Source of the DNA: Bacteroidales bacterium OttesenSCG-928-B11
GTDB lineage: Bacteria > Bacteroidota > Bacteroidia > Bacteroidales > WCHB1-69
Direction: 5' to 3'
Assembly (NCBI GenBank): GCA_030267125.1
Contig: JAJDJJ010000001.1
Coordinates: 78,027-142,026, forward strand
DNA length: 64,000 nucleotides
The position numbers were made by a program, and so were the translations under genes. The stretch's first letter is position 1, and each line of letters opens with the position of its first letter. Of this stretch, positions 20,936-40,295 are shown one piece after another. The notes under the pieces were generated by a model, which ran no database searches, was not told the DNA's origin, and saw only the letters and a program-made list of their open reading frames with translations.

Positions 20936-20991
20936 CCTCGCCTTTGGCAAAATGCCAAAGCATTAGATGGCAGTGTGGAAAACTGATAAAA

Positions 20992-24576: not shown

Positions 24577-24683
24577 GAAGGTAAAATGGGCGAGCGTACA
24601 ACAAGCAGTTTGCCAAAAGCGGGTCTATCGCTTCGTAGGAAAGTGATTTGCAAATAGATAGTTGATTTCTTTGTAGAAAGTTT

Positions 24684-24691
24684 TATCTTTG
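24684..24691 (+). promoter_or_regulatory. -7 box followed by a hairpin (24696-24729) directly upstream of the truncated nitroreductase remnant
   Basis: TATCTTTG, then CCTTCGCTG-(16 nt)-CAGCGAAGG. Confidence 0.4.
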
Positions 24692-24733
24692 CCCGCCTTC
24701 GCTGCTAAACCGTTAGCCGTCAGCGAAGGATAG

Positions 24734-25072
24734 ATAGGTGCTGATGGTTCGCAATGTGTTTTAATAGTTTGTCGTGATAGAAGAAACGAATTGATACGCT
24801 CCTACGACCAGAAATGCTCTGGCGACTTGGATATTGGTATTGTTTGCGACCATATAATGCTTTGTGCGCGAGAATTAGGAATTGGAAGCGTAATGGTTGG
24901 ATTATTTGACCCTAAAATTATTAGAAGAGAATTTTTTATACCAAACCACATAGAACCCACGGCATTGATAATGTTAGGTAATCCGATAAATGGTTTTTTA
25001 GACGCTGAACGACACCATACAGAACGGAAAAAACTTGAAGAAACGGTTGTGTATGAAATGTACAATGAATAA
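24734..25072 (+). pseudogene. 5'-truncated nitroreductase-family gene remnant
   Basis: The frame is open only from 24734, with no ATG. It encodes just the C-terminal roughly 110 aa (VLIVCRDRR...DIGIVCDHIMLCARELGIGSVMVG...) and lacks the N-terminal FMN-binding region. Confidence 0.6.
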
Positions 25073-25435
25073 TGCCAGCAGCCGGATGTAATGGACGTTT
25101 TTAATGGTTTTTCAGATCAGCTATGCATCAATTAGCAGAGTTTTTGTACGATTATTATTACACTACTTTATAGTGAAGTGTTATCGGATAAATCATGCCA
25201 AGTGGGATTTTGATTTACAAAAATAATATCTCAAAAAAATTAAATCAAATAAATATAAAACAGAAAGAAAAAAACGAGCTGTTTTGTTGAAAATCACGAC
25301 TCGAATCCCGGCCAAAAATAGCAGTGAAAAACCCCTTGAATAAAGAAAAAAATCTCTATTCATCTTCTTGATTATGAGGGAGAAAAATAATTATTCAAAA
25401 ATGTTTTCCGGGTATTTTTTATATGAAATTTGTTG

Positions 25436-25443
25436 TACTTTTG
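25436..25443 (+). promoter_or_regulatory. -7 box upstream of the receiver gene and hyd locus
   Basis: TACTTTTG, about 100 nt before the ATG at 25544. Confidence 0.45.
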
Positions 25444-25543
25444 CATCGCTTGAAAGATTTTTGGAGCGAGGAAACAAGAAGATTTCGGGTGTAAATTAAT
25501 AGGAGCAGGAAGCATTTAATTAGAACAACCAATACAGAGCGTT

Positions 25544-26041
25544 ATGGAAAGCAAAAAAATTTTAATTGTTGATGATGATATTGACGTGATCACCATCATC
25601 GAAACCATTCTATCCCAAAAGGGATACAATGTTATTTCGGCTACAAACAAAGTGGAGGGCATGCGGAAGATTCGCAATGAAAAGCCAGACTTGGCCATTT
25701 TGGATGTGATGATGACGACACATTATGAGGGATTTGAATTAGCCAAAGAGCTTACCGATGATCCCGAGCTGAGAAAGCTGCCCATTTTGATGCAAACTTC
25801 TATAGATATTCTAACCACTACCAAGCCGGATGTGCAATCCATGGCTCGGGAATTTCGCAAGAATCCGGGTTTCAAAGAGTTGCATGTGATTTTGGTCAAA
25901 GATATCAATTCCGGGAAAGCCGGTGTTGACTATTTGAGCGAAAACGGCGAATCGATTTGGTTCCCTGTGGACGGTTTCGTGAGAAAGCCGGTGGATGGTA
26001 AAAAAGTCTTGACAGAAATAGATAGAATATTGGGTGAATAG
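25544..26041 (+). CDS. stand-alone response-regulator receiver protein (no output domain)
   Basis: DDD (10-12), phospho-acceptor D54 (AILDVMM), T85/S86, K148-P149. About 40 extra residues lie between the conserved T/S and the conserved K. Confidence 0.85.
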   Translation: MESKKILIVDDDIDVITIIETILSQKGYNVISATNKVEGMRKIRNEKPDLAILDVMMTTHYEGFELAKELTDDPELRKLPILMQTSIDILTTTKPDVQSMAREFRKNPGFKELHVILVKDINSGKAGVDYLSENGESIWFPVDGFVRKPVDGKKVLTEIDRILGE

Positions 26042-26189
26042 AAGCGAGATTTGACATTTTTTTATTGCAATTTTTTTTATTGAAGATATCTTTCTTCAAT
26101 GCAGGAGCTTTTGCAATATCGGTGCATAAGCCAAATTAAAGAATCAGAGTTATAAACCTAAAATAAATTTAAGTAACCAAAAATTTATT

Positions 26190-26651
26190 ATGAAAAAATC
26201 GATTGATAACATCTTAGAGAAGTACGAAAACAGCGGAAGGGATGCCCTTATCGCGTTACTCCAAGAAATTCAGGACAACGAGGGCTTTCTGTCAGAAGAG
26301 GCTATTGTTAAGACTGGGAAAAAACTAAACATTCCCACGAGTAAGATTTACGGCGTGGCGACATTTTACAATCAATTCCGGTTCGACCCCCAAGGAAGAT
26401 ATCACATTCAGGTATGTCGGGGAACAGCTTGCCATGTGTTAGGCTCGCTCACCGTGTTGCAAGAACTGGAAAAAACCCTTAAAGCTAAGGCCGGACAAAC
26501 TACTCGCGACGGTATGTTCAGTATCGAGGTGGTAGCCTGTATCGGGGCTTGCGGTCTCGCACCCGTGATCAGTGTCAACGGAACCTTCCATGCCAATATG
26601 ACCGCTGAAAGTATTAATGAATTAGTTGAAACCTATAGAAATAAAGAATAA
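26190..26651 (+). CDS. hydC: [FeFe]-hydrogenase NuoE-like [2Fe-2S] subunit
   Basis: 153 aa. Cys pattern VCRGTACHV ... VACIGACGLAPV (C-x4-C...C-x3-C) of the NuoE/HndA family. Confidence 0.9.
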   Translation: MKKSIDNILEKYENSGRDALIALLQEIQDNEGFLSEEAIVKTGKKLNIPTSKIYGVATFYNQFRFDPQGRYHIQVCRGTACHVLGSLTVLQELEKTLKAKAGQTTRDGMFSIEVVACIGACGLAPVISVNGTFHANMTAESINELVETYRNKE

Positions 26652-26653
26652 TT

Positions 26654-28597
26654 ATGACCGGGATGAATTCAGAAAAAAGGACACAATTGTTGATGGACCT
26701 TATCAAAGGCCAAAAAATTGAAAACGCTGAAGCCAAAAAAGAGCTGGGCGTAATTAGGCGGGAAATTATTGATACCCCGATCATCTATGTGGGAGCGGGT
26801 ACTTGCGGATTGGGCGCCGGAGCAGGCGAAACGATCACCGCTATCAGACAATATATAGAAAATAACAAAATAGCAGCCGATGTGATGGAGGTGGGTTGTA
26901 TTGGTTTATGTACAGCCGAACCCATCGTTGATGTGCAGCTTCCGGGTAAAAATAGAGTCTCTTTCAAGAAAGTAACGTACGATAAGGTGAACGATGTCTT
27001 GGATGCCGCTTTCGCTAAAAAACCGGAAACCCAAGAAAACCTTGGCCAACTTGATGTGGAAGGTAGCGAGAAATGGGATACCCTGCCCAATTTCAACGAC
27101 CATCCGTTCTTCGCGCGCCAACGCCGGATTGTTCTCAAAAGCTGCGGGTTGATTAATCCCGAAAGCATCGACGAATATATCGCTTTCGGTGGTTACGCTA
27201 CGATGCTGAAAATGATAACTAATCATTCGGACTTCGAAGTTTGCGACCTTATCGAGAAGAGCGGATTGCGCGGCCGTGGCGGCGGTGGTTTCCCCACCGG
27301 AAGGAAGTGGAAGTTTGCGCAAAAAGAACAAAATGATCAAAAATATATTATATGTAACGCCGACGAGGGTGACCCAGGGGCATTCATGGATCGTGCCGTT
27401 ATCGAAGGCGACCCGCACCGTCTCCTCGAAGGTATGGCGATCGGCGCTTATGCAATCGGCGCTTCCGTGGGGTATATTTATATCCGCGCGGAATATCCGT
27501 TGGCTATTAAACGCTTGCAAATTGCTATCAAACAAGCGAAAGAGTATGGCCTGCTGGGTGAAAACATATTTGGAACCGGTTTTAGTTTCGAACTGAAAAT
27601 CAAGATGGGGGCAGGTGCATTCGTTTGCGGAGAAGAGACCGCTTTGATCCACAGTATTGAAGGAAAACGCGGTATGCCGCGCCCTCGCCCGCCATTCCCG
27701 GCAGTGAGCGGATTGTTCGGCAAGCCTACCGTGATTAATAATGTGGAAACTTTTGCCAACGTGGCCGAAATCTTAACCAAAGGTTGGGAGTGGTTCGCAT
27801 CTGTGGGAACTGCAACCAGTAAAGGTACCAAAGTGTTCGCCTTGTCAGGGAAGATTAAAAATACCGGATTGGTTGAGATCCCCATGGGAACTACTATCCG
27901 CCAAATCATATTTGACATTGCCGATGGTATTGCTAACGGTAAAAAATTTAAAGCCGTACAGATAGGTGGGCCGTCAGGAGGTTGCGTTACTGAACAAAAT
28001 CTGGATATTCAAATCGACTACGAAACGCTCTTGACTGTGGGCGCGATGATGGGCTCCGGCGGATTGGTGGTGATGGACGAAGATAACTGTATGGTAGATG
28101 TGGCTAAGTTCTTTATGGACTTCATCCAGCGCGAAAGTTGCGGGAAATGTATCCCCTGCCGCGAAGGAACACGCCGTATGTTGGAAATCCTCGAAAGTAT
28201 CACCACAAAACCGATCCATAACGGACCGAACTCCGCATTGGAAAGAATGAAAGGAGTTATGCAACTGGAAAAATTAGCGACCGTGATCAAAGAAACGTCA
28301 TTGTGCGCTTTGGGGCAGTCAGCTCCGAATCCGGTACTTAGCACCTTGAAATGGTTCAGGAACGAGTACGAAGAACATATTTTCGAAAGAAACTGCCCGA
28401 CCAAGACATGCACGGAATTGAGAAAATTCAAAATTCATGCCGACTTGTGTACCGGTTGTACGCTTTGCGCGAGAAAATGCCCTACCGGTGCGATTATTGG
28501 ATCTAAGAAAGCGCCGCACTTCATCATCGATGACAAATGTATTGGCTGTGGCTCTTGCAAAGAGTCATGTAATTTTAACGCAATTGAAATGATTTAA
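26654..28597 (+). CDS. hydB: [FeFe]-hydrogenase NuoF-like flavoprotein subunit (NAD(P)H/FMN, Fe-S)
   Basis: GLRGRGGGGFPTGRKW FMN/NADH block. ESCGKCIPCREG [4Fe-4S]. N-terminal thioredoxin-like 2Fe-2S domain. C-terminal CTGCTLCARKCP and CIGCGSCKESC. Confidence 0.9.
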   Translation: MTGMNSEKRTQLLMDLIKGQKIENAEAKKELGVIRREIIDTPIIYVGAGTCGLGAGAGETITAIRQYIENNKIAADVMEVGCIGLCTAEPIVDVQLPGKNRVSFKKVTYDKVNDVLDAAFAKKPETQENLGQLDVEGSEKWDTLPNFNDHPFFARQRRIVLKSCGLINPESIDEYIAFGGYATMLKMITNHSDFEVCDLIEKSGLRGRGGGGFPTGRKWKFAQKEQNDQKYIICNADEGDPGAFMDRAVIEGDPHRLLEGMAIGAYAIGASVGYIYIRAEYPLAIKRLQIAIKQAKEYGLLGENIFGTGFSFELKIKMGAGAFVCGEETALIHSIEGKRGMPRPRPPFPAVSGLFGKPTVINNVETFANVAEILTKGWEWFASVGTATSKGTKVFALSGKIKNTGLVEIPMGTTIRQIIFDIADGIANGKKFKAVQIGGPSGGCVTEQNLDIQIDYETLLTVGAMMGSGGLVVMDEDNCMVDVAKFFMDFIQRESCGKCIPCREGTRRMLEILESITTKPIHNGPNSALERMKGVMQLEKLATVIKETSLCALGQSAPNPVLSTLKWFRNEYEEHIFERNCPTKTCTELRKFKIHADLCTGCTLCARKCPTGAIIGSKKAPHFIIDDKCIGCGSCKESCNFNAIEMI

Positions 28598-28610
28598 AAA
28601 AAACAGAGTT

Positions 28611-30338
28611 ATGAGTATGCAAATTGAAGTTAATGGTAATAAAATAGAGGCCTTTGAAGGCGAAACCATATTAAGTGCGTTGAATAGGAACGGAATCAAA
28701 ATACCGACCCTATGCCACATGAAAAAATTTATCCCTTCCGGTGCGTGTCGTATCTGTGTCGTGGAAGTTATAGGAAGTCCTAAGTTAGTTACAGCTTGTT
28801 CTTTCCCCGTTGCCGACGGGATGAAAATTCTCACGCATTCGCTGAAAGTTACTGAAGCGCGTAAGACGATTATCGAACTGTTGCTTTCAAACCATCCCGA
28901 CGATTGTTTGTACTGTTTGCGCAATGGGAACTGCGAATTGCAGAGTCTTTCGAAAGAGTACCACGTGGTGGAAAGAAGAATCCGCGGCAAAAAGAATAGT
29001 TTTAAATTAGACCATTCCGGTCCGAGTATCGTGCGCGACCCCGAGAAATGTATCCTTTGCGGTCGCTGTGTGCGCGTATGCGAAGAGGTGATGGGTGTGG
29101 CTTGTATCGATTACATCAACAGAGGAAGCCAAACATTTATCGGCACAACTTTGAAAAAACCGTTGAATACCTCCAGCTGCATAAATTGCGGACAGTGTAT
29201 CATGGTTTGTCCTACCGGAGCTTTGACCGAGAAAAACAATGTAGCCTTGATGCAAGAAGCTTTGCATCGCAAAGATAAAAAAGTGGTTGTGCAATATGCT
29301 CCCGCTATTACGGTTTCCATTGCTGAGGCATTTGGCTTGGAACCTGGTACGGATTTGAACGGCGTGTTGAATGCCGCTCTCCGGAAAATGGGCTTTAATT
29401 ATGTGTTTGACACTACGTTCAGCGCCGACTTAACCATTATGGAAGAGGCGTCAGAGTTGATTCATCGAGTGGTAAACGGAGGCAAACTGCCGATGTTCAC
29501 CAGCTGTTGCCCGGGGTGGATTAAATATGCGGAGGAGTTTGCGCCGGATATGTTGGCTAATTTGTCCTCTTGTAAATCGCCGCAACAGATGTTGGGCGCG
29601 GTAATCAAGAGTTATTTCGCTGAACAGGTGAATTTGAAACCGGAAGAGATAACCTCCGTGTCCATCATGCCTTGCACTGCGAAGAAATTTGAGGCTGAAC
29701 GCGCAACGATGGGGCGCGACGGTGTCCCCGATGTAGATATCGTGCTGACTACCCGTGAATTGATCGAAATGATCAAGTTGTACGGTATCGATCTGAAAAA
29801 CATCGAACCCGAAATCACAGACTCGCCGCTTGGCGTTAGAAGCTCTGCGGGTAAAATTTTTGGCGCTAGTGGCGGTGTAATGGAAGCGGCGATCAGAACG
29901 GCGTATAAGATGATTACCGGTGAAGAACTCGCCAATTTTAGAGTGTGCGCGGTCAGAGGCTTTGACGGACACAAAGAGGCGAAAATCAAAATCAACGAAA
30001 ACTTGGAGATCGGTGTGGCGGTTGTTAGCGGATTGGCTAATGCGGCTACTTTAATTGAGGAGATCCGTAATGGACGTGACGACATCCACTTCATAGAGGT
30101 GATGACTTGCCCCGGCGGTTGTATTGCGGGCGGTGGACAGATCATCGGCGTGAACGAATCTTTCATTGCTGCGCGTATGAAGTCGCTCTATGACATCGAT
30201 GAAAGAGAAACTATCAAAGTGTCTCATAAAAATCCGGAAGTTATCGAGTTGTATGATAAATATTTGGGTAAGCCGCTTGGACACAAGAGCCACGACTTGC
30301 TTCACACTTCTTACGAAAAAAGAGATGTATTATTGTAA
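28611..30338 (+). CDS. hydA: catalytic [FeFe]-hydrogenase large subunit (group A, multimeric type)
   Basis: All three H-cluster signatures are present: FTSCCPGW (nt 29496-29519), MPCTAKKFE, EVMTCPGGCIAGGGQ. N-terminal 2Fe-2S and three 4Fe-4S motifs. Confidence 0.95.
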   Translation: MSMQIEVNGNKIEAFEGETILSALNRNGIKIPTLCHMKKFIPSGACRICVVEVIGSPKLVTACSFPVADGMKILTHSLKVTEARKTIIELLLSNHPDDCLYCLRNGNCELQSLSKEYHVVERRIRGKKNSFKLDHSGPSIVRDPEKCILCGRCVRVCEEVMGVACIDYINRGSQTFIGTTLKKPLNTSSCINCGQCIMVCPTGALTEKNNVALMQEALHRKDKKVVVQYAPAITVSIAEAFGLEPGTDLNGVLNAALRKMGFNYVFDTTFSADLTIMEEASELIHRVVNGGKLPMFTSCCPGWIKYAEEFAPDMLANLSSCKSPQQMLGAVIKSYFAEQVNLKPEEITSVSIMPCTAKKFEAERATMGRDGVPDVDIVLTTRELIEMIKLYGIDLKNIEPEITDSPLGVRSSAGKIFGASGGVMEAAIRTAYKMITGEELANFRVCAVRGFDGHKEAKIKINENLEIGVAVVSGLANAATLIEEIRNGRDDIHFIEVMTCPGGCIAGGGQIIGVNESFIAARMKSLYDIDERETIKVSHKNPEVIELYDKYLGKPLGHKSHDLLHTSYEKRDVLL

Positions 30339-30341
30339 ACA

Positions 30342-32333
30342 ATGACTTCGATGGCACGCTTAAATAACGAGCTTGTTTTTACTGTCAAAGACAGGTGTAA
30401 GGTTTGTTATACCTGTGTGAGAGGATGCCCTGTCAAGGCCATTAAGATTGTTAATGGCCAGGCAGAGGTGATCTCAAGCCGTTGTATAGGTTGTGGAAAT
30501 TGTACCCGAGTATGCAGTCAAAATGCTAAGAAATTCCTTGATAATACCGAAGATGCCATGGAGCTGCTGGATATGAAAGGAGTCAAAGTAGCATGCCTTG
30601 CACCAAGCTATGTCGCAGAGTTCGTAGATATAGTAGACTACAAGGTGCTGGTCGGGATGATCAAAAAGCTGGGCTTTGATTATGTGACGGAAGTCTCTTT
30701 CGGAGCGGATCTTATTGCCAATGAGTATAATAAGATGTACGAAGATGAAGACTGTCCAGCCTCTATTTCCACCGATTGCCCCGCAATCGTCTATTATGTT
30801 AAACATTATGTTCCGGAGTTGACCAACATGTTGGCTCCCATTGTTTCACCAATGGTTGCTTCTGTGCGTGTTGCAAAAAAGCTCTATGGTGATGGCATCA
30901 AAACGGTGTTTATCGGACCATGCGTGGCAAAAAAAGCGGAGTCTACCGAAGTTGATATTGTACTCACTTTTAAAGAACTGCGTAAGTTATTCAGAGTTAA
31001 TAATATCGCTTTGCATAATAGCACACCTTCGGGGTTTGACGGGCCAGAGGGCAACAAGGCGGCACTATTCCCTGTTACAAGAGGGAAATTGCATGCTGTC
31101 AATAAATTGGATGATATCGGAGAAGATAACATCCTTGTTGCCTCGGGTAAAGGGAACTTTCGAGAAGCGATAAAGGAGTTTGATGCGGGGTTGGATCGTT
31201 CGCAACATTTGGAACTGCTTTGCTGCAACGGTTGCATTATGGGGCCGGGAATGACGCAAGGCGCGCATTATTATGCCAAAGTCTCACACATGAAAGAGTT
31301 TGTATCCAATAAGATCAAAACGATGGATCAAGAGAAATGGCAAAAATATTTCGACCAATTCAAGAATGAAGACTACTCCCAATCATTTTATCCCGCAGAT
31401 CGTCGTATTCCCAATCCGTCTAACGAAGAGATCGAAAATGTGTTGATATCCATGGGGAAGGCCAATCCAAAAGAACACCTCAATTGTGGCGCTTGCGGAT
31501 ATGAAACTTGTATTGACCATGCCATCGCCATTGTGGAAGGTTTGGCGGAAACGGAGATGTGTCTGCCGTTTACTATCGAAAAATTGCACAAATTAGTGGC
31601 GGAATTGAACCTCTCCAATGAAAAATTGGCGTCGACTCAACAATCGCTCCGACAGAGTGAGAAATTAGCGTCAATGGGGCAGCTCTCCGCAGGTATTGCG
31701 CATGAACTGAATAACCCATTGGGAATCATTACTATGTATAGTAATATTTTGTTGGAAGAACTGCCGGAAGGAAATTCACAGCGCAATGATTTGCAGTTGA
31801 TTGTAGAGCAGGCCGAGCGTTGTCGGAAAATCGTTGGCGGTTTGTTGAACTTTGCGCGCAAGAATCAGGTTCATTACCAAGAGACCGATATTGATGCTTT
31901 CGTTCTGCGAAGTATCGAGTCGGTGATTGTGCCGGACTTGGTTAACGTGGAATTGCAATCTAACTTGACAGATAAGTTGGTGGAGATCGATACGGATCAG
32001 TTTATGCAGGTTCTTACTAATATTGAAAAAAATGCCATTGAAGCTATACCGGAAACGGGCGGAACTCTATCTATCACCATTAATGGGGATGAAAAAGAGG
32101 TGGAATTCCTTATTTCGGATACCGGCGCGGGAATTTCGGAAGAGAATATGGATAAGATATTCACACCGTTTTTCACGACTAAGCCAGTGGGACAAGGCAC
32201 GGGATTAGGACTGCCGCTCATCTATGGAATAGTGAAAATGCACAAGGGACAAATTCAGGTCACTTCAAATAATAATCCTGAAAAAGGTCCGACAGGAACA
32301 ACATTTAAAATTAAAATACCAAGAAGAAAATAA
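30342..32333 (+). CDS. hydrogenase-like (H-domain) sensor fused to a histidine kinase
   Basis: Two ferredoxin 4Fe-4S motifs. Degenerate H-cluster motifs STDCP / GPCVAKKAE / LLCCNGCIMGPGM. CGACGYETC Fe-S motif. H-box AHELNNP (His454). N-box NIEKNAIEA, DTGAGI, GTGLGL. Confidence 0.85.
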   Translation: MTSMARLNNELVFTVKDRCKVCYTCVRGCPVKAIKIVNGQAEVISSRCIGCGNCTRVCSQNAKKFLDNTEDAMELLDMKGVKVACLAPSYVAEFVDIVDYKVLVGMIKKLGFDYVTEVSFGADLIANEYNKMYEDEDCPASISTDCPAIVYYVKHYVPELTNMLAPIVSPMVASVRVAKKLYGDGIKTVFIGPCVAKKAESTEVDIVLTFKELRKLFRVNNIALHNSTPSGFDGPEGNKAALFPVTRGKLHAVNKLDDIGEDNILVASGKGNFREAIKEFDAGLDRSQHLELLCCNGCIMGPGMTQGAHYYAKVSHMKEFVSNKIKTMDQEKWQKYFDQFKNEDYSQSFYPADRRIPNPSNEEIENVLISMGKANPKEHLNCGACGYETCIDHAIAIVEGLAETEMCLPFTIEKLHKLVAELNLSNEKLASTQQSLRQSEKLASMGQLSAGIAHELNNPLGIITMYSNILLEELPEGNSQRNDLQLIVEQAERCRKIVGGLLNFARKNQVHYQETDIDAFVLRSIESVIVPDLVNVELQSNLTDKLVEIDTDQFMQVLTNIEKNAIEAIPETGGTLSITINGDEKEVEFLISDTGAGISEENMDKIFTPFFTTKPVGQGTGLGLPLIYGIVKMHKGQIQVTSNNNPEKGPTGTTFKIKIPRRK

Positions 32334-32343
32334 GAAAAAAATT

Positions 32344-32751
32344 ATGGAACAATTCAAAAACATGACAGCGCTAATCGCTGACGATGATGTGGATATGACC
32401 ACACAATTGTCACTTCAACTTCAAAAAATGGGTTTCAAAGTATTGATTGCCGAATCGCAAAAAGAGACGGAAGAGATTATGGAAGCCACCAAACCGGACA
32501 TCGCCATCTTTGATTTGATGATGGACAATAAGGACAGCGGGTTTATCCTCAGTTATAAAATGAAGAAGAAATATCCCGATGTGCCGGTGATTATCCTTTC
32601 TGCTGTTACTTCCGATACCGGGATGATGTTTGGTGTGAATACCGATGAGGAAAAGGCTTGGATTAAAGCCGATTGCTATTTGGAAAAAGGCTTGCGAACC
32701 GAACAGCTCGAAAAGGAAATATTCCAATTGTTAAACAAAGAACATAATTAG
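32344..32751 (+). CDS. stand-alone response-regulator receiver protein
   Basis: DDD (13-15), D57 (AIFDLMM), S86, K115. 135 aa with no output domain. Confidence 0.85.
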   Translation: MEQFKNMTALIADDDVDMTTQLSLQLQKMGFKVLIAESQKETEEIMEATKPDIAIFDLMMDNKDSGFILSYKMKKKYPDVPVIILSAVTSDTGMMFGVNTDEEKAWIKADCYLEKGLRTEQLEKEIFQLLNKEHN

Positions 32752-32753
32752 TC

Positions 32754-33896
32754 ATGGCTACGTTGAATGTACTCATCGTTGACGATGAACCGGGCATTAG
32801 ATCGGGAATCACCCGTATTTTACGAGATTTTTCCGTTGATTTTCCGTTCTTGAATGAAGAGTTCGACTTCAATCTCATTGAGGTTGAAACGGGTGAATCG
32901 GCGGTCGAGCATCTGGATGCGGGAGAGGTAGATATTGTCCTGCTGGATAACAAACTGCCCGGAATTGACGGCATAGAAGTGTTGGAGTACATTAACGACA
33001 AAGAATTTGACTGTAGTGTAATGATGATTACGTCGTACGCGTCGTTGGATCTGGCGATCAAAGCTACGAACAACGGCGCGTATAATTTTGTGCCCAAGCC
33101 GTTCACTCCGACAGAGCTAAAAACTTCCATGGAAGGGATTACCAAGAATCTTTACCTGAGAAGGATGACCAAGAAGATGAACACGGAGGGCAAACAGATT
33201 CGTTTCCAATTCCTCTCCGTCCTCTCCCATGAGCTCAAATCTCCGCTTAATGCCATTGAGGGTTATCTCAATATTATTAAGGAGAGACAGTTGGGTGATA
33301 ATGTCACAGATTATGAGATGATGATCGATCGATCGTTGGAACGAATTAAAGGGATGCGCTCTCTCATTATGGATATGCTCGACCTTACCCGTCTTGAATC
33401 CAGTGCCAAAAAACGCGATGTGCAGAAAGTGGATTTAGTTGAAATCATGCGCCTCTCCAAGGATACGATGAGTCCATTAGCTATCCAGAAAAATATCAAA
33501 ATTAATATAGACGTACAACCTGACCATATCTTTTATATGGCCGATCGCCAAGAGATTGAAATTATATTTAATAACCTTGTGTCTAACGCTGTTAAGTATA
33601 ATAAAGACAACGGTGAGGTCAGCTGTGTGCTTCGCGAAGAGGGAGATCGCATCCGCATCTCTGTCAGTGATACCGGCATCGGTATCTCCGAAGAAGATAT
33701 ACCCAAACTCTTCCAGGATTTTGTCCGAATCAAGAACGAAAAAACCAAAACCATCAGCGGTAGCGGATTGGGTCTTTCAATCATGAAGAAAATCGCAGAA
33801 GAGGTTTACCACGGGACAGTTTCCGTTGAAAGTCAGCCGGATATGGGGTCGACCTTTACCGTGACCTTGCCGCGAACACCAACGATGGGGCGATAG
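32754..33896 (+). CDS. hybrid receiver-histidine kinase (REC-HisKA-HATPase_c)
   Basis: N-terminal REC (LIVDDEPG...IVLLDNKLPGIDG). H-box LSHELKSPLNAI. N-box NLVSNAVKYN, DTGIGI, GSGLGLSI. Confidence 0.85.
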   Translation: MATLNVLIVDDEPGIRSGITRILRDFSVDFPFLNEEFDFNLIEVETGESAVEHLDAGEVDIVLLDNKLPGIDGIEVLEYINDKEFDCSVMMITSYASLDLAIKATNNGAYNFVPKPFTPTELKTSMEGITKNLYLRRMTKKMNTEGKQIRFQFLSVLSHELKSPLNAIEGYLNIIKERQLGDNVTDYEMMIDRSLERIKGMRSLIMDMLDLTRLESSAKKRDVQKVDLVEIMRLSKDTMSPLAIQKNIKINIDVQPDHIFYMADRQEIEIIFNNLVSNAVKYNKDNGEVSCVLREEGDRIRISVSDTGIGISEEDIPKLFQDFVRIKNEKTKTISGSGLGLSIMKKIAEEVYHGTVSVESQPDMGSTFTVTLPRTPTMGR

Positions 33897-33964
33897 GTGA
33901 TGAATTAAATTCCACTTAACAGAGCAATAATGTGCACACTTTTTTGGAATGTTTACCGCATAAG

Positions 33965-33994
33965 AAAAAAGCTCCGATTTTTCGGAGCTTTTTT
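33965..33994. terminator. bidirectional terminator between the hybrid kinase gene (+) and the tRNA-Gly/Leu unit (-)
   Basis: aaaaaa-GCTCCGA-tttt-TCGGAGC-tttttt. Confidence 0.85.
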
Positions 33995-33995
33995 G

Positions 33996-34068
<73 letters not shown>

Positions 34069-34078
34069 CTATTTGTTG

Positions 34079-34163
34079 TACCTCGGGCGGGACTTGAACC
34101 CGCACGAACGCAATGTTCACGGGATTTTAAGTCCCGCGTGTCTACCAATTCCACCACCAAGGC
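34079..34163 (-). tRNA. tRNA-Leu (anticodon TAA), long variable arm
   Basis: The reverse complement is GCCTTGGTGGTGGAATTGGTAGACACGCGGGACTTAAAATCCCG...GCGGGTTCAAGTCCCGCCCGAGGTA. 85 nt. The end coordinates may be off by 1 nt. Confidence 0.85.
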
Positions 34164-34195
34164 GACTATCAAAGAACATTGCTTGTTTGAGGCTG

Positions 34196-34203
34196 CAAAA
34201 ATA
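34196..34203 (-). promoter_or_regulatory. -7 box upstream of the tRNA-Leu/tRNA-Gly unit
   Basis: Minus strand reads TATTTTTG, 33 nt upstream of the tRNA-Leu 5' end. Confidence 0.5.
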
Positions 34204-34313
34204 CACTATTTTTCCAAACGTGCAACAAGAAAGAACATTTTTTTCATAAAAAAATGCTTGCCTCTTTTTTCTTATCTTTAACCTCATAAAAAAATAAAAT
34301 AAACTCATTCAAA

Positions 34314-37300
34314 ATGAAACGATTAACTGTGTTTGCATTGCTATGCTTTCCGATATTTCTTTTTTCACAACAATCGGCAAAGGAGATGAAAACGGTTCTA
34401 TTGCATATTCAAGAACTGAAAATAACAACGGATGATTATTTTGATTCCACATATCATATTTTAAACCAGCAGATCGAGAATAATGAGGGTGTTGCGATGG
34501 CATTGTGGGAGAGTATGTTGGGAAAATTTTTGTTTGAATACTATAATGTTAACCGTTATCAAATTGGGCAACGTACTTCGATTGTAGGGGAGCTGCCGGA
34601 AGATTTTAAAACATGGGACGAAGAAACATTGAAATCACAGATACACAGTTGTTTTGAAAAATCATTGGCGGAAAAAGAGGGGCTAAAAAATACACCCGTG
34701 CTAAATTACGACTCGCTTTTCATTGCCATTTCTAATCCCGATAATGCAAATTTGTATGACTATGTGATGGGGTGTTATATTGACATTTGTGGAGATATCA
34801 TTTCCGTAGGATCTACTGTTCCGGAGATTAGTTTCCGTAAAATACTTATTCCCAATACGGAGTTTGTCAACTTCAATTATCCGGCAATCATTGGAGATGT
34901 GGACATGTTAAAACTGTTGGAATTATATCAGGAATATACCCAATATTGCATGAAACAGAGTAAAGGACGAGTTGTGAAAACAACATTGAAGCGTCTTAGC
35001 ATTGTTAAAAGAATCTCCCATAGTATTTATTTCGACGAATACATGGAGGCGGTATTGGCATTTGAGAAAGAGCAGCAGGGAAAGGAAGATTATGACAGGT
35101 TATGCTTTGAGATTGGAAATATGTACTATGATATTGCCGAATTTGGTTTTATGACGAAAGAACGTAATGCGGAAAATTGTGCTCTTGCCATCTCATGGAT
35201 GGAAAAAGTCATTGCAAACAGTTCCGATACGACATTAATTAAGACAGCGAAAAATAAGATCGATTTTATAAAAGAAAAAGATATAACGTTAAATATAGAA
35301 TCGTATCACCCTTCCAACCAGCCAATAATAGCCTCTTTAGAATATAAAAATAGTGATACGGCGACAATCCTTATTTATGATCTCCAATCAGAGGGATTTC
35401 CGGAAACTGATAGGCGCAATACCGAAGAGTGGGTGAAAAAGTGTTTGAAGTTTAACTATTTCAAGCAAATACAACTCCCGTTGATCACGCCGCATCAATA
35501 TGTATATCACCAGGCGGATCTCATCTTGCCTGCATTGCCATCGGGTGAATATCTAATCCTAGCGTTAAATGAAAGTGTTGATTCCGTTTTAAATCGGGAA
35601 TATTTCTCAGATATTCTGGATATAAAACAAATTGTTGTTTCGGATTTGCAGCTGCTGTTTCGTGAAAATTCGGAAAATTTGCAATTCTTTGTTACCAATC
35701 GTATTACAGGTAATCCTTTGGCAAAGGCCAATATAGAACTCGCATTTTATGAGGGAGATTCACTCTTCCAAAAAACGAATCTTATCACAGATAAAAACGG
35801 AGAGGCAAAGTGTGATATCCAATCCGTTGGGCGTAAGAATTTTTCATATACTATTTTAGTTACGTACAAAAAAGAGACGTTGCAATACAATAATTATGGC
35901 AATCTGAAAATACGACATTGGGAAAGAAACCGGCAACAACAAAGACCGGATATGGTAACGTATCTGGATCGTGCTATTTACCGCCCGGGTGATACCGTGC
36001 AGTTTAAATCTATTTTATGCAAAACGATGGATAGCGAATGTGTTGTTTTATCGGACTCGAGTATTCAGATATCCTGCCGTACTCCCAACTGGAAAATTCT
36101 CGATTCCATGACGCTTAAATTGAATGATTTCGGTTCTGTTTCAGGCTTTTTTATTATTCCAAAGAATGCGGAAACAGGACAGTACTCCATATCTGCTGAA
36201 AACATGGCTTCCGGTTATAAATATTTTCAAGTGGAGGAGTATAAACGGCCGAAATTTAAAATAGGCATAGATAAATCGACAAATTGTTATGAGATAAATG
36301 AACAAATGGAAATTACCGGAAAAGTAGAGGCTTATTCGGGTTATTCGTTAGAAGATATCCAGGTGAAATATCAAATAACAAGTCGGGTATATTTTCAAAC
36401 CCCATTGGGACGATCAGGATCGGGTGGTTATCCGATACAATTTACATATAAAACGGAAACGGGATTGTTAAAAACGGATCAAGATGGCGCATTTTCAATC
36501 AACCTTTTTCCCAATGATTCCATTTTTCCCGAGTTAGTCAAAGAGATAAGATATGGCATTGTCGTTACGGCAACCGATATTACCGGCGAGACACAAGAAA
36601 CGAGTTCTACGCTCAGGGTTGTCAAAAACAAAATCGAGATCATTCCGGATATCCCTGATGAGGTGGCATTAGATCAGAAATTTAGCTATCCTATCCATAC
36701 AACCGCATGTGATGGAATTCAGCAGCCGATTACGTTGAGTTATACGGTTCACCGATTGGAGGCCCCTTTCCAATATTATCATCGTTTCGACCGTTTGGGG
36801 AACTTGTTGAAGCTGGGGGATACCACGCTTTTTGAAAAATATTTTCCGGATTACGATTTGTATGATTATGGAAATCCTGAAAAGTGGAAAGATGCGGGAA
36901 TTGTGACCTCCGGTACACTAAATGCGGGCATTGATAGCTTGCTTACTATTGCCGGTACGAAAAATTGGAAAGAGGGGCATTACATCGTAAAATTTGAACA
37001 TATCAATGTAAATGGCGATACGATCCGGGCAGAAAAGAGCTTTAGAGGAATAAAGAAGGAAGAAAAATCGTGTCATATTTATGAGGCTTTATGGATTAAA
37101 TCAGAACAAGATCACTTGTTTGCCGATGATGTTTTGGAATTTTCCATTGGCTCCTATTGTAAAAATGCGAAAGTGTTACTGGAGGTTGATAATCAGGGTA
37201 AAGTCGTTTTTTCTGAATGGATTACGCTAAATAAGAGTAAGGAACTTATTAAAATACCAATGCTGGGAATGACGCAAGGCGATATATCCATCCAGGCGAC

Positions 37301-40295
37301 ATTGGTGCAGGCAAACGAAGTTTATATGGTCAACAAATCGCATACATATAATGGTAATAAAAAGAAAATGACTGTAGAACTGCACTCTTTTCGCGATCAG
37401 TATCTCCCAGGGGAAACCGTTACGTTAAGTTTGCAAACAACCGATGAAGATAAAAAACATCCGAAAACAGAGCTCCTTTGCGCCATGTACGATGCGTCGC
37501 TGGATATATTCGGCGAAAACAAATATTATCCATTTCATAATCGGATAAATTCTATTTCGTTATCTTCATTGCGCTATTCCCGAGGGGGACGTTCAATCTA
37601 TTTGAATTATCATCGTTCTGGAAATTACTTATTTAGTTACGATAATGTGAAATTTATTGGGATTAGTGACATTTGGAATTTTAATCCATGGGTGGTATAC
37701 GCTAATAATGCAGGTGGAGATTATTTTAGTCGAAATTTTGATGCGGAAATTTTCGACGAACTTGTCCTGATGGAAGATTCTTCTGTGCCGGGGTTTGGTG
37801 GTGGAGATGGATCTGACGTCAACGGAACAATAGTAAGGCATTCCAAACCAATGATAAGCGGCGAACAACTTCAGAAAAGTCGGAGTAATGGTGATGCCGG
37901 CCTGTCTGATGCTACCTCTTCAGCTCCTGAATTATCATCCTTTCGCACCAATTTTGCTGAAACAGCCTTCTTCTATCCGCATTTGCAAACAGATGAAAAA
38001 GGAGAAGTCTCTTTCACGTTCACGATGCCGGAGAGTTTGACAGCGTGGCACTTCCAAGCCGTGGCGCACACAAAGGACTTGAAAATGGGAGTATTGTCCA
38101 AGCAATTCAAGACTGTCAAACCGTTGATGGTGGTGACTAATCCGCCTCGCTTCTTTCGTGAGGGTGACACCATCGACTTCAGTGCTAAAATTGTGAGCCA
38201 GTTAGAAGAAGATTGTCGTGTTGTGGTCAACTTGCAATTGTTGGATGTTGAAACTGGAATCCCTGTTCGTTTTCAGCCAGACAGCAAAGTTGTTGACACG
38301 TTAACGGTAAAAACCAACGAAAGCACGTCTTGGCAATGTCGCTTTGTGGTACCTAAAGAGACACGGGGTATCACTTACCGGATCATGGCAAAGATGATTG
38401 GTTCAGTAGTGATGGATGGAGTGGAAATAACCCATAGCGATGGCGAAGAGCAGACCATTCCCGTGCTTCCCAACCGTACTTTGGTGACCGAAAGCATGCC
38501 TCTCTTTGTTGGAGGGAAACAGACGAAGGCGTTTGTGTTTAAGACGATGAAAGAAAATAACTCTCCAACGCTCGAAAACTTCCGTTATACTGTGGAGTTC
38601 ACCGCTAACCCGATTTGGGAGGTGTTGTTATCGTTGCCCTACATTATGGAATATCCTCACGATTGCAATGAACAGATTTTCAGTAGACTGTATGCGAATA
38701 GTGTTGGTGCGATGGTGGTGGATAGCCGCCCCGGAATCAAGGCGGTTTTCGCCCAATGGGAGAAAGAAGGTGCCTCTGCGCTGCAATCGCCCTTGGAGAA
38801 TAATCCGGAACTGAAAGGTGTTTTGTTGCAAGAAACACCGTGGTTAGTGGAAGCAGAGAATGAAACGCAACAACGGAAAAATATCGCCAAACTTTTTGAT
38901 AGAGATAATCTGCAAAAAGAAAACCAATCCGCTTTGCGTAAACTGAAACAAAATCAAAACAGTGATGGAGGTTGGAGTTGGTTTGCGGGTGGAAGATCCA
39001 ACACTTTCATCACCCGTCATATCCTTGCCGGATTTGGCAAACTCAACCGGTTGGGGGTCAATGTGAACACTGATTCTGTTATGATCAATAAAGCACTCGT
39101 CTTCGCAGATCAGGAACAGTTCTACGCATATAAGCAACTTAAAAAGAACAAGGATTTCAATGCGAACAGCCATTATTTATCATCGGATGTTTCGCACTAT
39201 TTGTATTGTAGATCCCTGTTTATTAACAAAAAAATAATCGGAAACGAGCAACAGGAGATGTATGATTTCTATCTGTCCCAAGCGGAAAAAAACTGGCGGT
39301 CGCAATCGTTTTATAACCAAGCATTGTTAGCTATCGCCTTGTATCACAACGATAAAATTGATATTGCTAAAACGATAGTGAAGAACCTGAAGAGCAAAGC
39401 ACAACACAGCGAATCGTTAGGGATGTATTGGAAGAAAGAGGGATTGGGATGGCGTTGGTATGAGGCGCCAATTGAGCGGCAAGCCTTGCTGATCGAAGCA
39501 TTCGCGTTGATAGGCGATGAGGAGGAGAGTGTGGAAAAGATGCGACAGTGGCTACTTTGCCAAAAACAGAGTCAGCATTGGGGAACCACCAAGGCGACCG
39601 TGGAAGCTTGTCATGCTTTGTTATCCACATCCGCGGCAAACTTGCCCGCAACGAATGACGTCATACTTACCATTGGTGATGCTGTTTTCGATTTGGACAA
39701 AACGGCGGCCGAGAGCGGTACCGGTTATTTCAAGCAAAGCTGGAATGGCGTGGAAATCCAATCGGACATGGCTAATATCCATATTACGAAAAAATCTTCC
39801 GATGTAGCGTGGGGCGGTGCATATTGGCAGTATTACGAGGAACAGGAAAAGGTGAAGCCAACGCAAGGCGATCTTTCCGTGAGTAAGAATCTTTATGCGG
39901 TTGTGATGAAGGATGGCAAGGAGCAGCTACTTCCTCTTAACGATGCTTCTCAATTTTCCGTTGGCGACCGCATCCGGGTGCGCATGGAAATTCGCAGCGA
40001 CCGTGATATCGATTTTGTCCATCTCAAAGATTCCCGTGCTTCGGCATTTGAACCGGTGAGTCAACTGTCGGGATATCGTAGCCAGGATGGATTGTGGTAT
40101 TATGAAGCTCCCCGCGATGCCGCGACCCATTTCTTCATCGATTTTCTACCTCGCGGTACTTACGTGATAGAATATACTTTAGTGGCTACACAAACCGGTG
40201 CCTTTAACACTGGTGCTGCCACCATCCAATCGATGTACGCGCCGGAATTTTCAGCGAATAGCGGAGGAGGAGGGAAAGTGAAAATCGGGAATTGA
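34314..40295 (+). CDS. bacterial alpha-2-macroglobulin family protein with thioester motif
   Basis: 1993 aa with a signal peptide. A2M signature RTNFAETAFFYPHLQTDEKGEVSFTFTMPESLTAWHF. CxEQ thioester motif CNEQ at nt 38664-38675. Long MG-domain-like beta regions. Confidence 0.9.
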   Translation: MKRLTVFALLCFPIFLFSQQSAKEMKTVLLHIQELKITTDDYFDSTYHILNQQIENNEGVAMALWESMLGKFLFEYYNVNRYQIGQRTSIVGELPEDFKTWDEETLKSQIHSCFEKSLAEKEGLKNTPVLNYDSLFIAISNPDNANLYDYVMGCYIDICGDIISVGSTVPEISFRKILIPNTEFVNFNYPAIIGDVDMLKLLELYQEYTQYCMKQSKGRVVKTTLKRLSIVKRISHSIYFDEYMEAVLAFEKEQQGKEDYDRLCFEIGNMYYDIAEFGFMTKERNAENCALAISWMEKVIANSSDTTLIKTAKNKIDFIKEKDITLNIESYHPSNQPIIASLEYKNSDTATILIYDLQSEGFPETDRRNTEEWVKKCLKFNYFKQIQLPLITPHQYVYHQADLILPALPSGEYLILALNESVDSVLNREYFSDILDIKQIVVSDLQLLFRENSENLQFFVTNRITGNPLAKANIELAFYEGDSLFQKTNLITDKNGEAKCDIQSVGRKNFSYTILVTYKKETLQYNNYGNLKIRHWERNRQQQRPDMVTYLDRAIYRPGDTVQFKSILCKTMDSECVVLSDSSIQISCRTPNWKILDSMTLKLNDFGSVSGFFIIPKNAETGQYSISAENMASGYKYFQVEEYKRPKFKIGIDKSTNCYEINEQMEITGKVEAYSGYSLEDIQVKYQITSRVYFQTPLGRSGSGGYPIQFTYKTETGLLKTDQDGAFSINLFPNDSIFPELVKEIRYGIVVTATDITGETQETSSTLRVVKNKIEIIPDIPDEVALDQKFSYPIHTTACDGIQQPITLSYTVHRLEAPFQYYHRFDRLGNLLKLGDTTLFEKYFPDYDLYDYGNPEKWKDAGIVTSGTLNAGIDSLLTIAGTKNWKEGHYIVKFEHINVNGDTIRAEKSFRGIKKEEKSCHIYEALWIKSEQDHLFADDVLEFSIGSYCKNAKVLLEVDNQGKVVFSEWITLNKSKELIKIPMLGMTQGDISIQATLVQANEVYMVNKSHTYNGNKKKMTVELHSFRDQYLPGETVTLSLQTTDEDKKHPKTELLCAMYDASLDIFGENKYYPFHNRINSISLSSLRYSRGGRSIYLNYHRSGNYLFSYDNVKFIGISDIWNFNPWVVYANNAGGDYFSRNFDAEIFDELVLMEDSSVPGFGGGDGSDVNGTIVRHSKPMISGEQLQKSRSNGDAGLSDATSSAPELSSFRTNFAETAFFYPHLQTDEKGEVSFTFTMPESLTAWHFQAVAHTKDLKMGVLSKQFKTVKPLMVVTNPPRFFREGDTIDFSAKIVSQLEEDCRVVVNLQLLDVETGIPVRFQPDSKVVDTLTVKTNESTSWQCRFVVPKETRGITYRIMAKMIGSVVMDGVEITHSDGEEQTIPVLPNRTLVTESMPLFVGGKQTKAFVFKTMKENNSPTLENFRYTVEFTANPIWEVLLSLPYIMEYPHDCNEQIFSRLYANSVGAMVVDSRPGIKAVFAQWEKEGASALQSPLENNPELKGVLLQETPWLVEAENETQQRKNIAKLFDRDNLQKENQSALRKLKQNQNSDGGWSWFAGGRSNTFITRHILAGFGKLNRLGVNVNTDSVMINKALVFADQEQFYAYKQLKKNKDFNANSHYLSSDVSHYLYCRSLFINKKIIGNEQQEMYDFYLSQAEKNWRSQSFYNQALLAIALYHNDKIDIAKTIVKNLKSKAQHSESLGMYWKKEGLGWRWYEAPIERQALLIEAFALIGDEEESVEKMRQWLLCQKQSQHWGTTKATVEACHALLSTSAANLPATNDVILTIGDAVFDLDKTAAESGTGYFKQSWNGVEIQSDMANIHITKKSSDVAWGGAYWQYYEEQEKVKPTQGDLSVSKNLYAVVMKDGKEQLLPLNDASQFSVGDRIRVRMEIRSDRDIDFVHLKDSRASAFEPVSQLSGYRSQDGLWYYEAPRDAATHFFIDFLPRGTYVIEYTLVATQTGAFNTGAATIQSMYAPEFSANSGGGGKVKIGN

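Follow-up and report, generated by a model that had tools for sequence, protein, structure and literature searches.

The window analyzed here, a stretch of 64,000 nucleotides (nt) from Bacteroidales bacterium OttesenSCG-928-B11, contains a hydCBA operon for a bifurcating [FeFe] hydrogenase, and directly behind hydA an open reading frame (ORF) of 663 amino acid residues in which a hydrogenase-like domain is joined to a histidine kinase. This ORF, the sensor kinase in what follows, probably encodes a sensory [FeFe] hydrogenase of group C, histidine kinase-linked C1 type, that is, an H2 sensor in one polypeptide. The putative assignment to C1 is based upon its architecture and upon orthology to Hydrogenedentota and Bacteroidales proteins that others have placed in that class (PMC11406978, PMC7768429). 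It is one more member of a class that is known, catalogued, and widespread, and does not represent a novel type of system: the entry "[FeFe] group C1, histidine kinase-linked (putative)" has been in HydDB since 2016 (Sondergaard, Pedersen and Greening, PMC5037454). An earlier note on this DNA, written from the sequence, held that kinase-fused forms were known from genome surveys only, which is correct, but it overstated their novelty, the class being both named and very widespread. What is added here is a phylum-spanning three-gene signaling cassette without a DNA-binding output, an aspartate (Asp145, together with Lys249) characteristic of the Bacteroidota proteins, a CxxC form of signature 3, and the full Cx2Cx4Cx16C motif; to judge from the relatives, this sensor module likewise occurs joined to PAS, sigma-54 activator, GGDEF, and MCP outputs.

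The sensor kinase ORF starts 3 nt past the hydA stop at 30338, and its residues are numbered from the 663-residue ORF. An identical protein in NCBI, [quoted passage not shown] from a Bacteroidales metagenome-assembled genome, begins at Met4 and is thus 660 residues long. Pfam reveals two ferredoxin motifs (F-domain), a hydrogenase H-domain, a C-terminal FeS domain, HisKA, and HATPase_c in that order (Table 1), which is the full series that the earlier note had read from the sequence; every motif and nucleotide coordinate that it gave proved exact (Asp145-Cys146, 30774-30779; Cys194, 30921; Cys294/295/298, 31221-31235; CGACGYETC, 31485-31511; His454, 31701). BLASTP bears out the collinearity proposed with the adjacent HydA, the two proteins aligning over the F- and H-domains with 25% identity (E = 6e-22). 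Also as claimed, neither a PAS nor a GAF domain lies between the FeS domain and the kinase, there being no Pfam match to either in the sensor kinase at E <= 0.01.

Two sets of relatives were aligned. An exhaustive search with the sensor half (residues 1-420) gave 150 representatives, most of which are 33-49% identical, with a few fragments reaching 55%; the second and closer set consists of 66 relatives, the Bacteroidota clade, in which all eight cysteines of the F-domain are invariant. The window HydA was used as a ruler, CpI numbering holding in it for C299/C300 and M353-C355. Cys146, Cys194, Cys295, and Cys298 of the sensor kinase align with Cys300, Cys355, Cys500, and Cys504 of this HydA and with C300, C355, C499, and C503 of CpI, the ligands of the H-cluster, and they are present in 147, 149, 148, and 146 of the 150 representatives, respectively. 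The earlier note had named these four residues together with Cys294. The latter drops out, for position 294 is mostly Phe, Ala, or Tyr in the 150 relatives; with Cys295 and Cys298 conserved and Cys294 not, the L3 ligand pair is Cys295-x2-Cys298 (CxxC). Signature 3 accordingly reads E-x-L-x-C-x-G-C, one residue shorter than the E-x-M-x-C-x-x-G-C (CxxxC) of group A.

The pocket around the 2Fe subsite is likewise retained. CpI residues P231/S232, S323/P324, K358, E361, and F417 have their equivalents in Pro88/Ser89, Ser169/Pro170, Lys197, Glu200, and Phe243, with Lys197 found in 131, Glu200 in 143, Pro88 in 145, and Ser89 in 133 of the 150 representatives. Apart from position 243 (Phe in 77, Tyr in 57), pocket and ligand residues lie in the range 131-148 (149 for Cys194), and in the 66 closer relatives all of them are invariant save Phe243 (Phe 62, Tyr 4). 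Further downstream, the CGACGYETC motif of the earlier note is present at its place but is incomplete as an Fe-S motif, since a fourth ligand, Cys407, extends it to Cx2Cx4Cx16C. These cysteines occur in 142-144 of the 150 relatives, and the motif is the unifying hallmark of the group C and D sensory [FeFe] hydrogenases (PMC8163306, PMC13104023).

Such conservation bears upon the view that takes the H-domain for a relative of hydrogenases, Nar1-like or degenerate, which holds [4Fe-4S] clusters only or none at all and serves as a scaffold for a kinase that answers some other cue. The authors who described the Hydrogenedentota C1 proteins could hardly detect the canonical P1-P3 signatures (PMC11406978), and the NCBIfam hydrogenase scores of the sensor kinase fall far under their cutoffs (FeFe_hydrog_B1, 149.6 vs 450). 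Yet the signatures are altered rather than absent, the four ligand cysteines and the 2Fe-pocket residues being conserved, and motifs that are changed though ligand-complete explain why P1-P3 were scarcely recognized in the Hydrogenedentota proteins. True hydrogenases rank first among its matches in sequence and in fold, and residues 8-418 are collinear with PAS-type proteins of HydS architecture at 33-49% identity. Among the PDB matches of the sensor kinase, by sequence or by fold, there is no protein of Nar1 type, the alignment itself including no Nar1 reference sequence. Taken together, a scaffold of this kind seems extremely improbable, and an H-cluster is presumably inserted.

Other residues that are important in catalytic hydrogenases have been exchanged. 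In CpI numbering C299 is replaced by Asp145, M353 by Gly192, and M497 by Leu293; the group A proton pathway is replaced throughout (E279 by Tyr129, E282 by Lys131, R286 by Asp135, and S319 by Ala165); and the GGGQ motif of group A HydA is lost from the H-domain. The characterized, putatively sensory hydrogenases TmHydS and TamHydS exhibit a similar pattern of replacement, yet both incorporate the 2Fe subsite and show a reaction with H2, the only such proteins for which this has been demonstrated (PMC10055695, PMC8163306, PMC10407848). TmHydS has Ala131, Gly177, and Ser267 at the C299, M353, and M497 positions (PMC10055695), and differs at the first and last of these from the window protein with its Asp145 and Leu293.

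Asp145 deserves separate comment. It is invariant in the Bacteroidota clade (66/66), whereas in orthologs of the same cassette outside this phylum the residue is Thr, Ser, Ala, Asn, or Pro, so that by sequence the aspartate is specific to Bacteroidota. Among the 150 representatives the position is held by Ala (57), Pro (23), Thr (21), Ser (15), or Cys (14), and a comparable spread has been published for the HydDB sensory sequences (PMC10055695). A lysine, Lys249 (31086-31088), which corresponds in position to CpI V423 and TamHydS E252, occurs exclusively alongside Asp145 (30774-30776), in 48 of the 66 close relatives, and never with Thr, Ser, or Ala. This distribution hints that Asp145 and Lys249 may form a coupled pair beside the amine of the azadithiolate (adt) bridge.

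The earlier note was right that the proton-relay cysteine has become Asp; its corollary, that catalytic tuning has been lost, is too simple. Aspartate is the sole C299 substitution reported to preserve group A activity (PMC10055695, citing Morra 2012 and Duan 2018), and being permissive there it makes "lost catalytic tuning" an unsafe reading from Asp145 alone; the loss of the remaining proton pathway is a stronger argument. The same report would suit a protein that is mainly an enzyme, in which Asp145 restores the proton relay of a catalytically competent hydrogenase and the kinase half reports turnover or is secondary, and so would the invariance of Asp145 in the close relatives and the restriction of Lys249 to proteins that possess it. 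Against this stand the exchange of the four other pathway residues, the replacement of M353 and M497, the missing GGGQ motif, the Thr, Ser, Ala, or Pro found in orthologs of the same cassette in other phyla, and the catalytic HydA encoded directly upstream. A primarily enzymatic role is therefore regarded as very improbable, and a sensory role of the H-domain is preferred.

Of the checks that the earlier note had proposed, structure prediction was among those carried out. The AlphaFold2 model, built on the alignment of 66 relatives, has a mean predicted local distance difference test (pLDDT) score of 80, with the H-domain mostly above 90, and its best Foldseek matches are authentic hydrogenases (HydA of Thermoanaerobacter kivui HydABC, CbA5H, DdH, and CpI), the kinase half matching ZraS. 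Residues 408-507 are modeled as helices only, which is in line with the lack of a PAS domain: one helix (408-432) follows right after Cys407, a low-confidence segment occupies 433-443, and the DHp helix begins at 444. On this model a mechanical connection of the FeS domain with the kinase would be plausible. The kinase core is complete, as had been noted, with the boxes AHELNNP, NIEKNAIEA, DTGAGI, FTPFFTTK, and GTGLGL intact and invariant in the relatives. Its closest families are AtoS, ZraS, and NtrB-like kinases, ZraS being the top PDB sequence match (E = 1.5e-36); by domains and boxes the kinase half is a working-looking class I (HisKA-type) sensor histidine kinase.

Another check, a phylogeny, consisted of a rough neighbor-joining tree that was built from 149 sequences and rooted on the window HydA, without group B, E-G, or Nar1 references; in it the window protein falls within the clade of direct kinase fusions, far from HydA. 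A classification of the 150 representatives by local jackhmmer, with Pfam on 10 exemplars, suggests that the module of two Fer4 motifs, H-domain, and FeS domain is a promiscuous input domain. It is followed by a PAS-like tail and nothing more in about 71 of the 150, directly by a HisKA or HisKA_3 kinase in about 36, by a PAS/GAF kinase in about 7, by a sigma-54 AAA+ activator in 14, by GGDEF in 5, and by an MCP signaling domain in 3.

Two of the sigma-54 activator fusions adjoin hydABC-type genes. In one of these loci (L087) the gene fusing the module to the activator lies directly 5' of a hydC spacer that contains a near-consensus sigma-54 site, TGGCAG-N5-TTGCA (TGGCAGCGAATTTGCA), at 7686-7701. 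The site is on the correct strand, 155 nt 5' of hydC, and no other TGGCAC-N5-TTGCW-like site exists in this locus, against an expectation of about 0.63 matches for the locus as a whole and about 0.01 for the hydC spacer. AT-rich inverted repeats are found further 5' in the same spacer. By analogy, this arrangement lends independent but indirect support to the idea that the module may control hyd transcription.

The sensor kinase is a member of a conserved gene cassette. A word-index search returned 7,536 matches, the best 120 of which all share its architecture at 59-100% identity, and in a scan of one genome per species at least 576 genomes encode a relative. The 80 best of these are full-length fusions from Bacteroidota, Planctomycetota, Hydrogenedentota, Myxococcota, Acidobacteriota, Ignavibacteriota, Chloroflexota, Elusimicrobiota, Verrucomicrobiota, Spirochaetota, and other phyla, and the cassette counts were drawn from their loci (denominators 66-77 as given). 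hydA ends less than 600 nt 5' of the sensor gene in 59 of 77 loci; a homolog of the receiver-kinase hybrid is encoded 3' of the sensor gene in 69 of 75, across many phyla; a small-receiver homolog adjoins the sensor gene in 59 of 75; and hydG/E/F lie downstream on the same strand in 29 of 66. The cassette of hydCBA, sensor kinase, small receiver, and receiver-kinase hybrid is conserved across phyla.

The receiver 5' of hydC is kept in the closest Bacteroidales loci and varies in form, being a 165-residue protein with an insertion in the window, a 309-residue double receiver in L001 (4835-5764), and two separate receivers in L003 (4761-5747). A second HydS-like gene, transcribed divergently, is found about 2-5 kb 5' of hydC on the minus strand in many Bacteroidales loci (L008, L011, L012, L023, L025-L030, L035, L036, and L053). 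Its product has two Fer4 motifs, H- and FeS domains, and some 200 tail residues without a Pfam match, which makes two hydrogenase-like sensors for a single hyd locus; no second sensor is encoded in the window.

From these elements the following scheme can be drawn. The N-terminal half of the sensor kinase (two [4Fe-4S] clusters, H-domain, and C-terminal [4Fe-4S] cluster) would bind and slowly turn over H2, so that the redox or protonation state of the H-cluster would track the cellular H2 level. A change of state would cross the C-terminal FeS domain, where Cys407 stands at the start of the long helix leading into the DHp helix with His454, and would set the balance between autokinase and phosphatase activity, in whichever direction H2 acts on the kinase. 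Phosphoryl groups would then presumably flow to the two co-transcribed receivers, namely the 135-residue protein and the REC domain of the REC-HisKA-HATPase hybrid, which their adjacency suggests as partners, and this multi-kinase relay would finally adjust the production or the activity of the co-encoded bifurcating HydABC, its presumed target.

Several observations weigh against this scheme. No study showing H-cluster binding or an H2 response for a kinase-fused form was found in the literature searched, which included few subscription journals. Electron paramagnetic resonance indicates that H2 does not reduce TamHydS's C-terminal [4Fe-4S] cluster, and the authors of that work argue against redox signaling via that cluster (PMC13104023). 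The linker is poorly modeled, with pLDDT below 50 over residues 422-455. The hydE, hydF, and hydG maturase genes were not found in the 64-kb window when the maturases of L001 were compared with all window ORFs by phmmer, and NCBIfam scans of the window ORFs that were maturase candidates revealed unrelated functions only. The conserved core of the cassette encodes no DNA-binding domain in the related loci, and no sigma-54 promoter is present near the window operon, the two matches elsewhere in the window being at chance level; a link to hyd transcription thus exists by association only. As regards DNA-binding partners in the conserved neighborhoods, sigma-54 activators are encoded in 3 loci and a NarL-type two-component pair in a few Bacteroidales loci, the window not among them. 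A PAS-HisKA_3 kinase paired with an RR-GerE protein is encoded further 5' in a few loci only.

The behavior of the TamHydS cluster is also what would be expected if the clusters sensed redox state, O2, or CO, and not H2. The kinase would then report redox state or exposure to oxygen, either through equilibration of the F-clusters with ferredoxin or through damage to the H-cluster and FeS clusters by O2, or binding of CO to them, and would thereby restrict the synthesis of an O2-sensitive hydrogenase to suitable conditions. The protein has four Fe-S sites and an exposed ferredoxin-like F-domain, Fe-S proteins are known as sensors of gases and oxidative stress (PMC13104023), and the module is joined to many generic outputs, sometimes away from hyd genes (L004, L068-L070). 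Nevertheless, the residues equivalent to K358, S232, P231, P324, and E361, which hold the CN/CO-ligated 2Fe subsite and would be needless in a plain Fe-S redox sensor, are strongly conserved; linkage of the gene to hydCBA is tight and often extends to hydGFE; and TmHydS and TamHydS, with the same module, react with H2 (PMC10055695, PMC8163306). The retained 2Fe pocket and the reactivity of these two proteins count against pure redox sensing, which we judge to be unlikely, if deserving of serious consideration. Sensing of H2 by a single polypeptide, as the earlier note proposed, has conservation, fold, the promiscuity of the module, and the operon context in its favor and is the most probable reading.

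A more speculative version of H2 sensing, which is offered as improbable, is twofold: that Asp145 of the Bacteroidota proteins, often with Lys249, might rebuild a proton relay near the adt amine and permit real H2 turnover, the kinase reading flux and not mere binding; and that a cassette without a DNA-binding member might control HydABC or its maturation through protein-protein contact and not through transcription.

Between successive genes of the window operon, from hydC through to the hybrid kinase, the gaps are 2-13 nt (Table 1). The catalytic HydA scores 807.9 bits (cutoff 765) with the NCBIfam model FeFe_hydrog_A6, "NADH-dependent [FeFe] hydrogenase, group A6."

Table 1. Location of the hyd/sensor operon, the domains of the sensor kinase, and the adjoining tRNA genes in the window
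Feature	Position	Strand	Basis or remark
Stand-alone response-regulator receiver, 165 aa, insertion before beta5	25544..26041	+	Response_reg E = 1.6e-15; NCBIfam best = DVU0259/DivK-type single-domain response regulator
hydC, NuoE-like 2Fe-2S subunit of HydABC	26190..26651	+	PF01257 E = 7e-50; NuoE family
hydB, NuoF-like flavin/NADH subunit	26654..28597	+	Complex1_51K, NADH_4Fe-4S; nuoF_fam
hydA, catalytic [FeFe] hydrogenase, TSCCPGW / MPCTAKKFE / EVMTCPGGCIAGGGQ	28611..30338	+	Fe_hyd_lg_C + Fe_hyd_SSU
Sensor kinase, 663 aa (F-domain, H-domain, C-terminal FeS domain, helical linker, HisKA, HATPase_c)	30342..32333	+	Pfam, BLASTP, AlphaFold, Foldseek
N-terminal F-domain, two [4Fe-4S] ferredoxin motifs (Cys19/22/25/29, Cys48/51/54/58)	30384..30527	+	Pfam Fer4 types, aa 15-62
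H-domain, aa 83-302; ligands Cys146, Cys194, Cys295, Cys298	30588..31247	+	Fe_hyd_lg_C PF02906 E = 1.8e-41
C-terminal [4Fe-4S] motif Cx2Cx4Cx16C (Cys382, 385, 390, 407)	31485..31562	+	FeS PF04060, aa 380-409, E = 1.8e-8
Helical linker, Cys407 to DHp helix	31563..31673	+	AlphaFold model; no Pfam domain
HisKA (DHp), aa 445-508, phospho-acceptor His454 (AHELNNP)	31674..31865	+	PF00512 E = 6.4e-14
HATPase_c, aa 550-662, N, G1 (DTGAGI), F, and G2 (GTGLGL) boxes	31989..32327	+	PF02518 E = 2.7e-22
Stand-alone receiver, 135 aa, 10 nt 3' of sensor kinase	32344..32751	+	Response_reg E = 4.7e-14
Receiver-HisKA-HATPase_c hybrid kinase, 380 aa	32754..33896	+	Pfam
tRNA-Gly(gcc)	33995-34068	-	With tRNA-Leu directly past hybrid kinase gene, closing unit
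tRNA-Leu(taa)	34078-34163	-	See tRNA-Gly

Promoter searches gave sigma-70-like matches at chance level in the window. Terminator-like sites number 16, as compared with a mean of 9.3 (standard deviation 3.0) in shuffled sequence, yet none lies at the ends of the operon, and an Rfam search over 24600-34400 revealed the two tRNAs only and no regulatory RNA. The first receiver gene is preceded by an AT-rich non-coding stretch of 470 nt (25073-25543) without an Rfam match, sigma-54 site, or recognized promoter. At the other end, the tRNA pair occupies the place where hydG, hydF, and hydE follow in many related loci. The genes for penicillin-binding protein 1C (pbpC) and bacterial alpha-2-macroglobulin usually adjoin in bacteria. 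In the window pbpC (20944-23379) and the gene for an alpha-2-macroglobulin of 1993 residues (34314-40295) are about 11 kb apart, the interval being filled by a YhcG/DUF1016 nuclease gene, a 93-residue ORF remnant, the hyd/sensor operon, and the two tRNA genes. An insertion or rearrangement may have brought the hyd cassette to this place.

Among known systems the closest is HydDB group C1 itself, in which the gene for an H-domain linked to a histidine kinase adjoins a bifurcating HydABC/Hnd operon; the class is known from Bacteroidales as well as from many further phyla, with a function that is only proposed. Examples include ING2E5A_0849 of Petrimonas mucosa, beside hndABCD (PMC7768429), and HATPase_c-containing C1 proteins beside A3 hydrogenases in Hydrogenedentota (PMC11406978); the cassette of the window recurs at 43-49% identity in the Hydrogenedentota loci L043, L048, and L073. 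Nothing essential separates the window system from this class, except that the hydGFE genes found behind the cassette in many relatives are missing from the window.

TmHydS of Thermotoga maritima (group C, M2f, putatively sensory) resembles the window protein in its two N-terminal [4Fe-4S] clusters, ligand-complete H-domain, Cx2Cx4Cx16C motif, Gly at M353, loss of the group A proton pathway, and encoding together with a group A hydrogenase (PMC10055695, PMC8163306). By comparison, TmHydS ends in a PAS domain and needs separate partners, whereas in the window protein the FeS domain leads through a helix into HisKA/HATPase_c. TamHydS of Thermoanaerobacter mathranii (group D, M2e, likewise putatively sensory) shares the three-part Fe-S architecture without PAS and Leu at M497, but its gene is flanked by, and not fused to, that of a kinase-like ATPase (PMC8163306); it also differs in having Ala137 at C299, Ser at M353, and a proton path of its own via E252/E289 (PMC10407848), where the window protein has Lys249 at E252. 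In two systems of HydDB group 2b ("histidine kinase-linked"), HoxBC-HoxJ-HoxA from Cupriavidus necator and HupUV-HupT-HupR from Rhodobacter capsulatus, a low-activity hydrogenase likewise reports H2 to a kinase that controls hydrogenase genes (PMC5037454, PMC6776011). These [NiFe] sensors have an unrelated metal site, belong to an unrelated family, contact a separate kinase via a PAS-like domain, and act through a known DNA-binding output; the putative window sensor is a single polypeptide with no known output of that kind.

How sensory [FeFe] hydrogenases transmit their signal is still debated, the two characterized examples having no built-in output and a 2026 study arguing against the route through the C-terminal cluster (PMC13104023). 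The kinase fusion offers a direct biochemical readout, autophosphorylation with and without H2, and hence the most direct handle on [FeFe] sensor signaling; it would also be a compact part for synthetic H2 biosensors. This value attaches to the whole class, which is familiar to specialists, and not to the window locus in particular. The class is common in Bacteroidota of gut, sediment, and digester, where the partial pressure of H2 steers fermentation.

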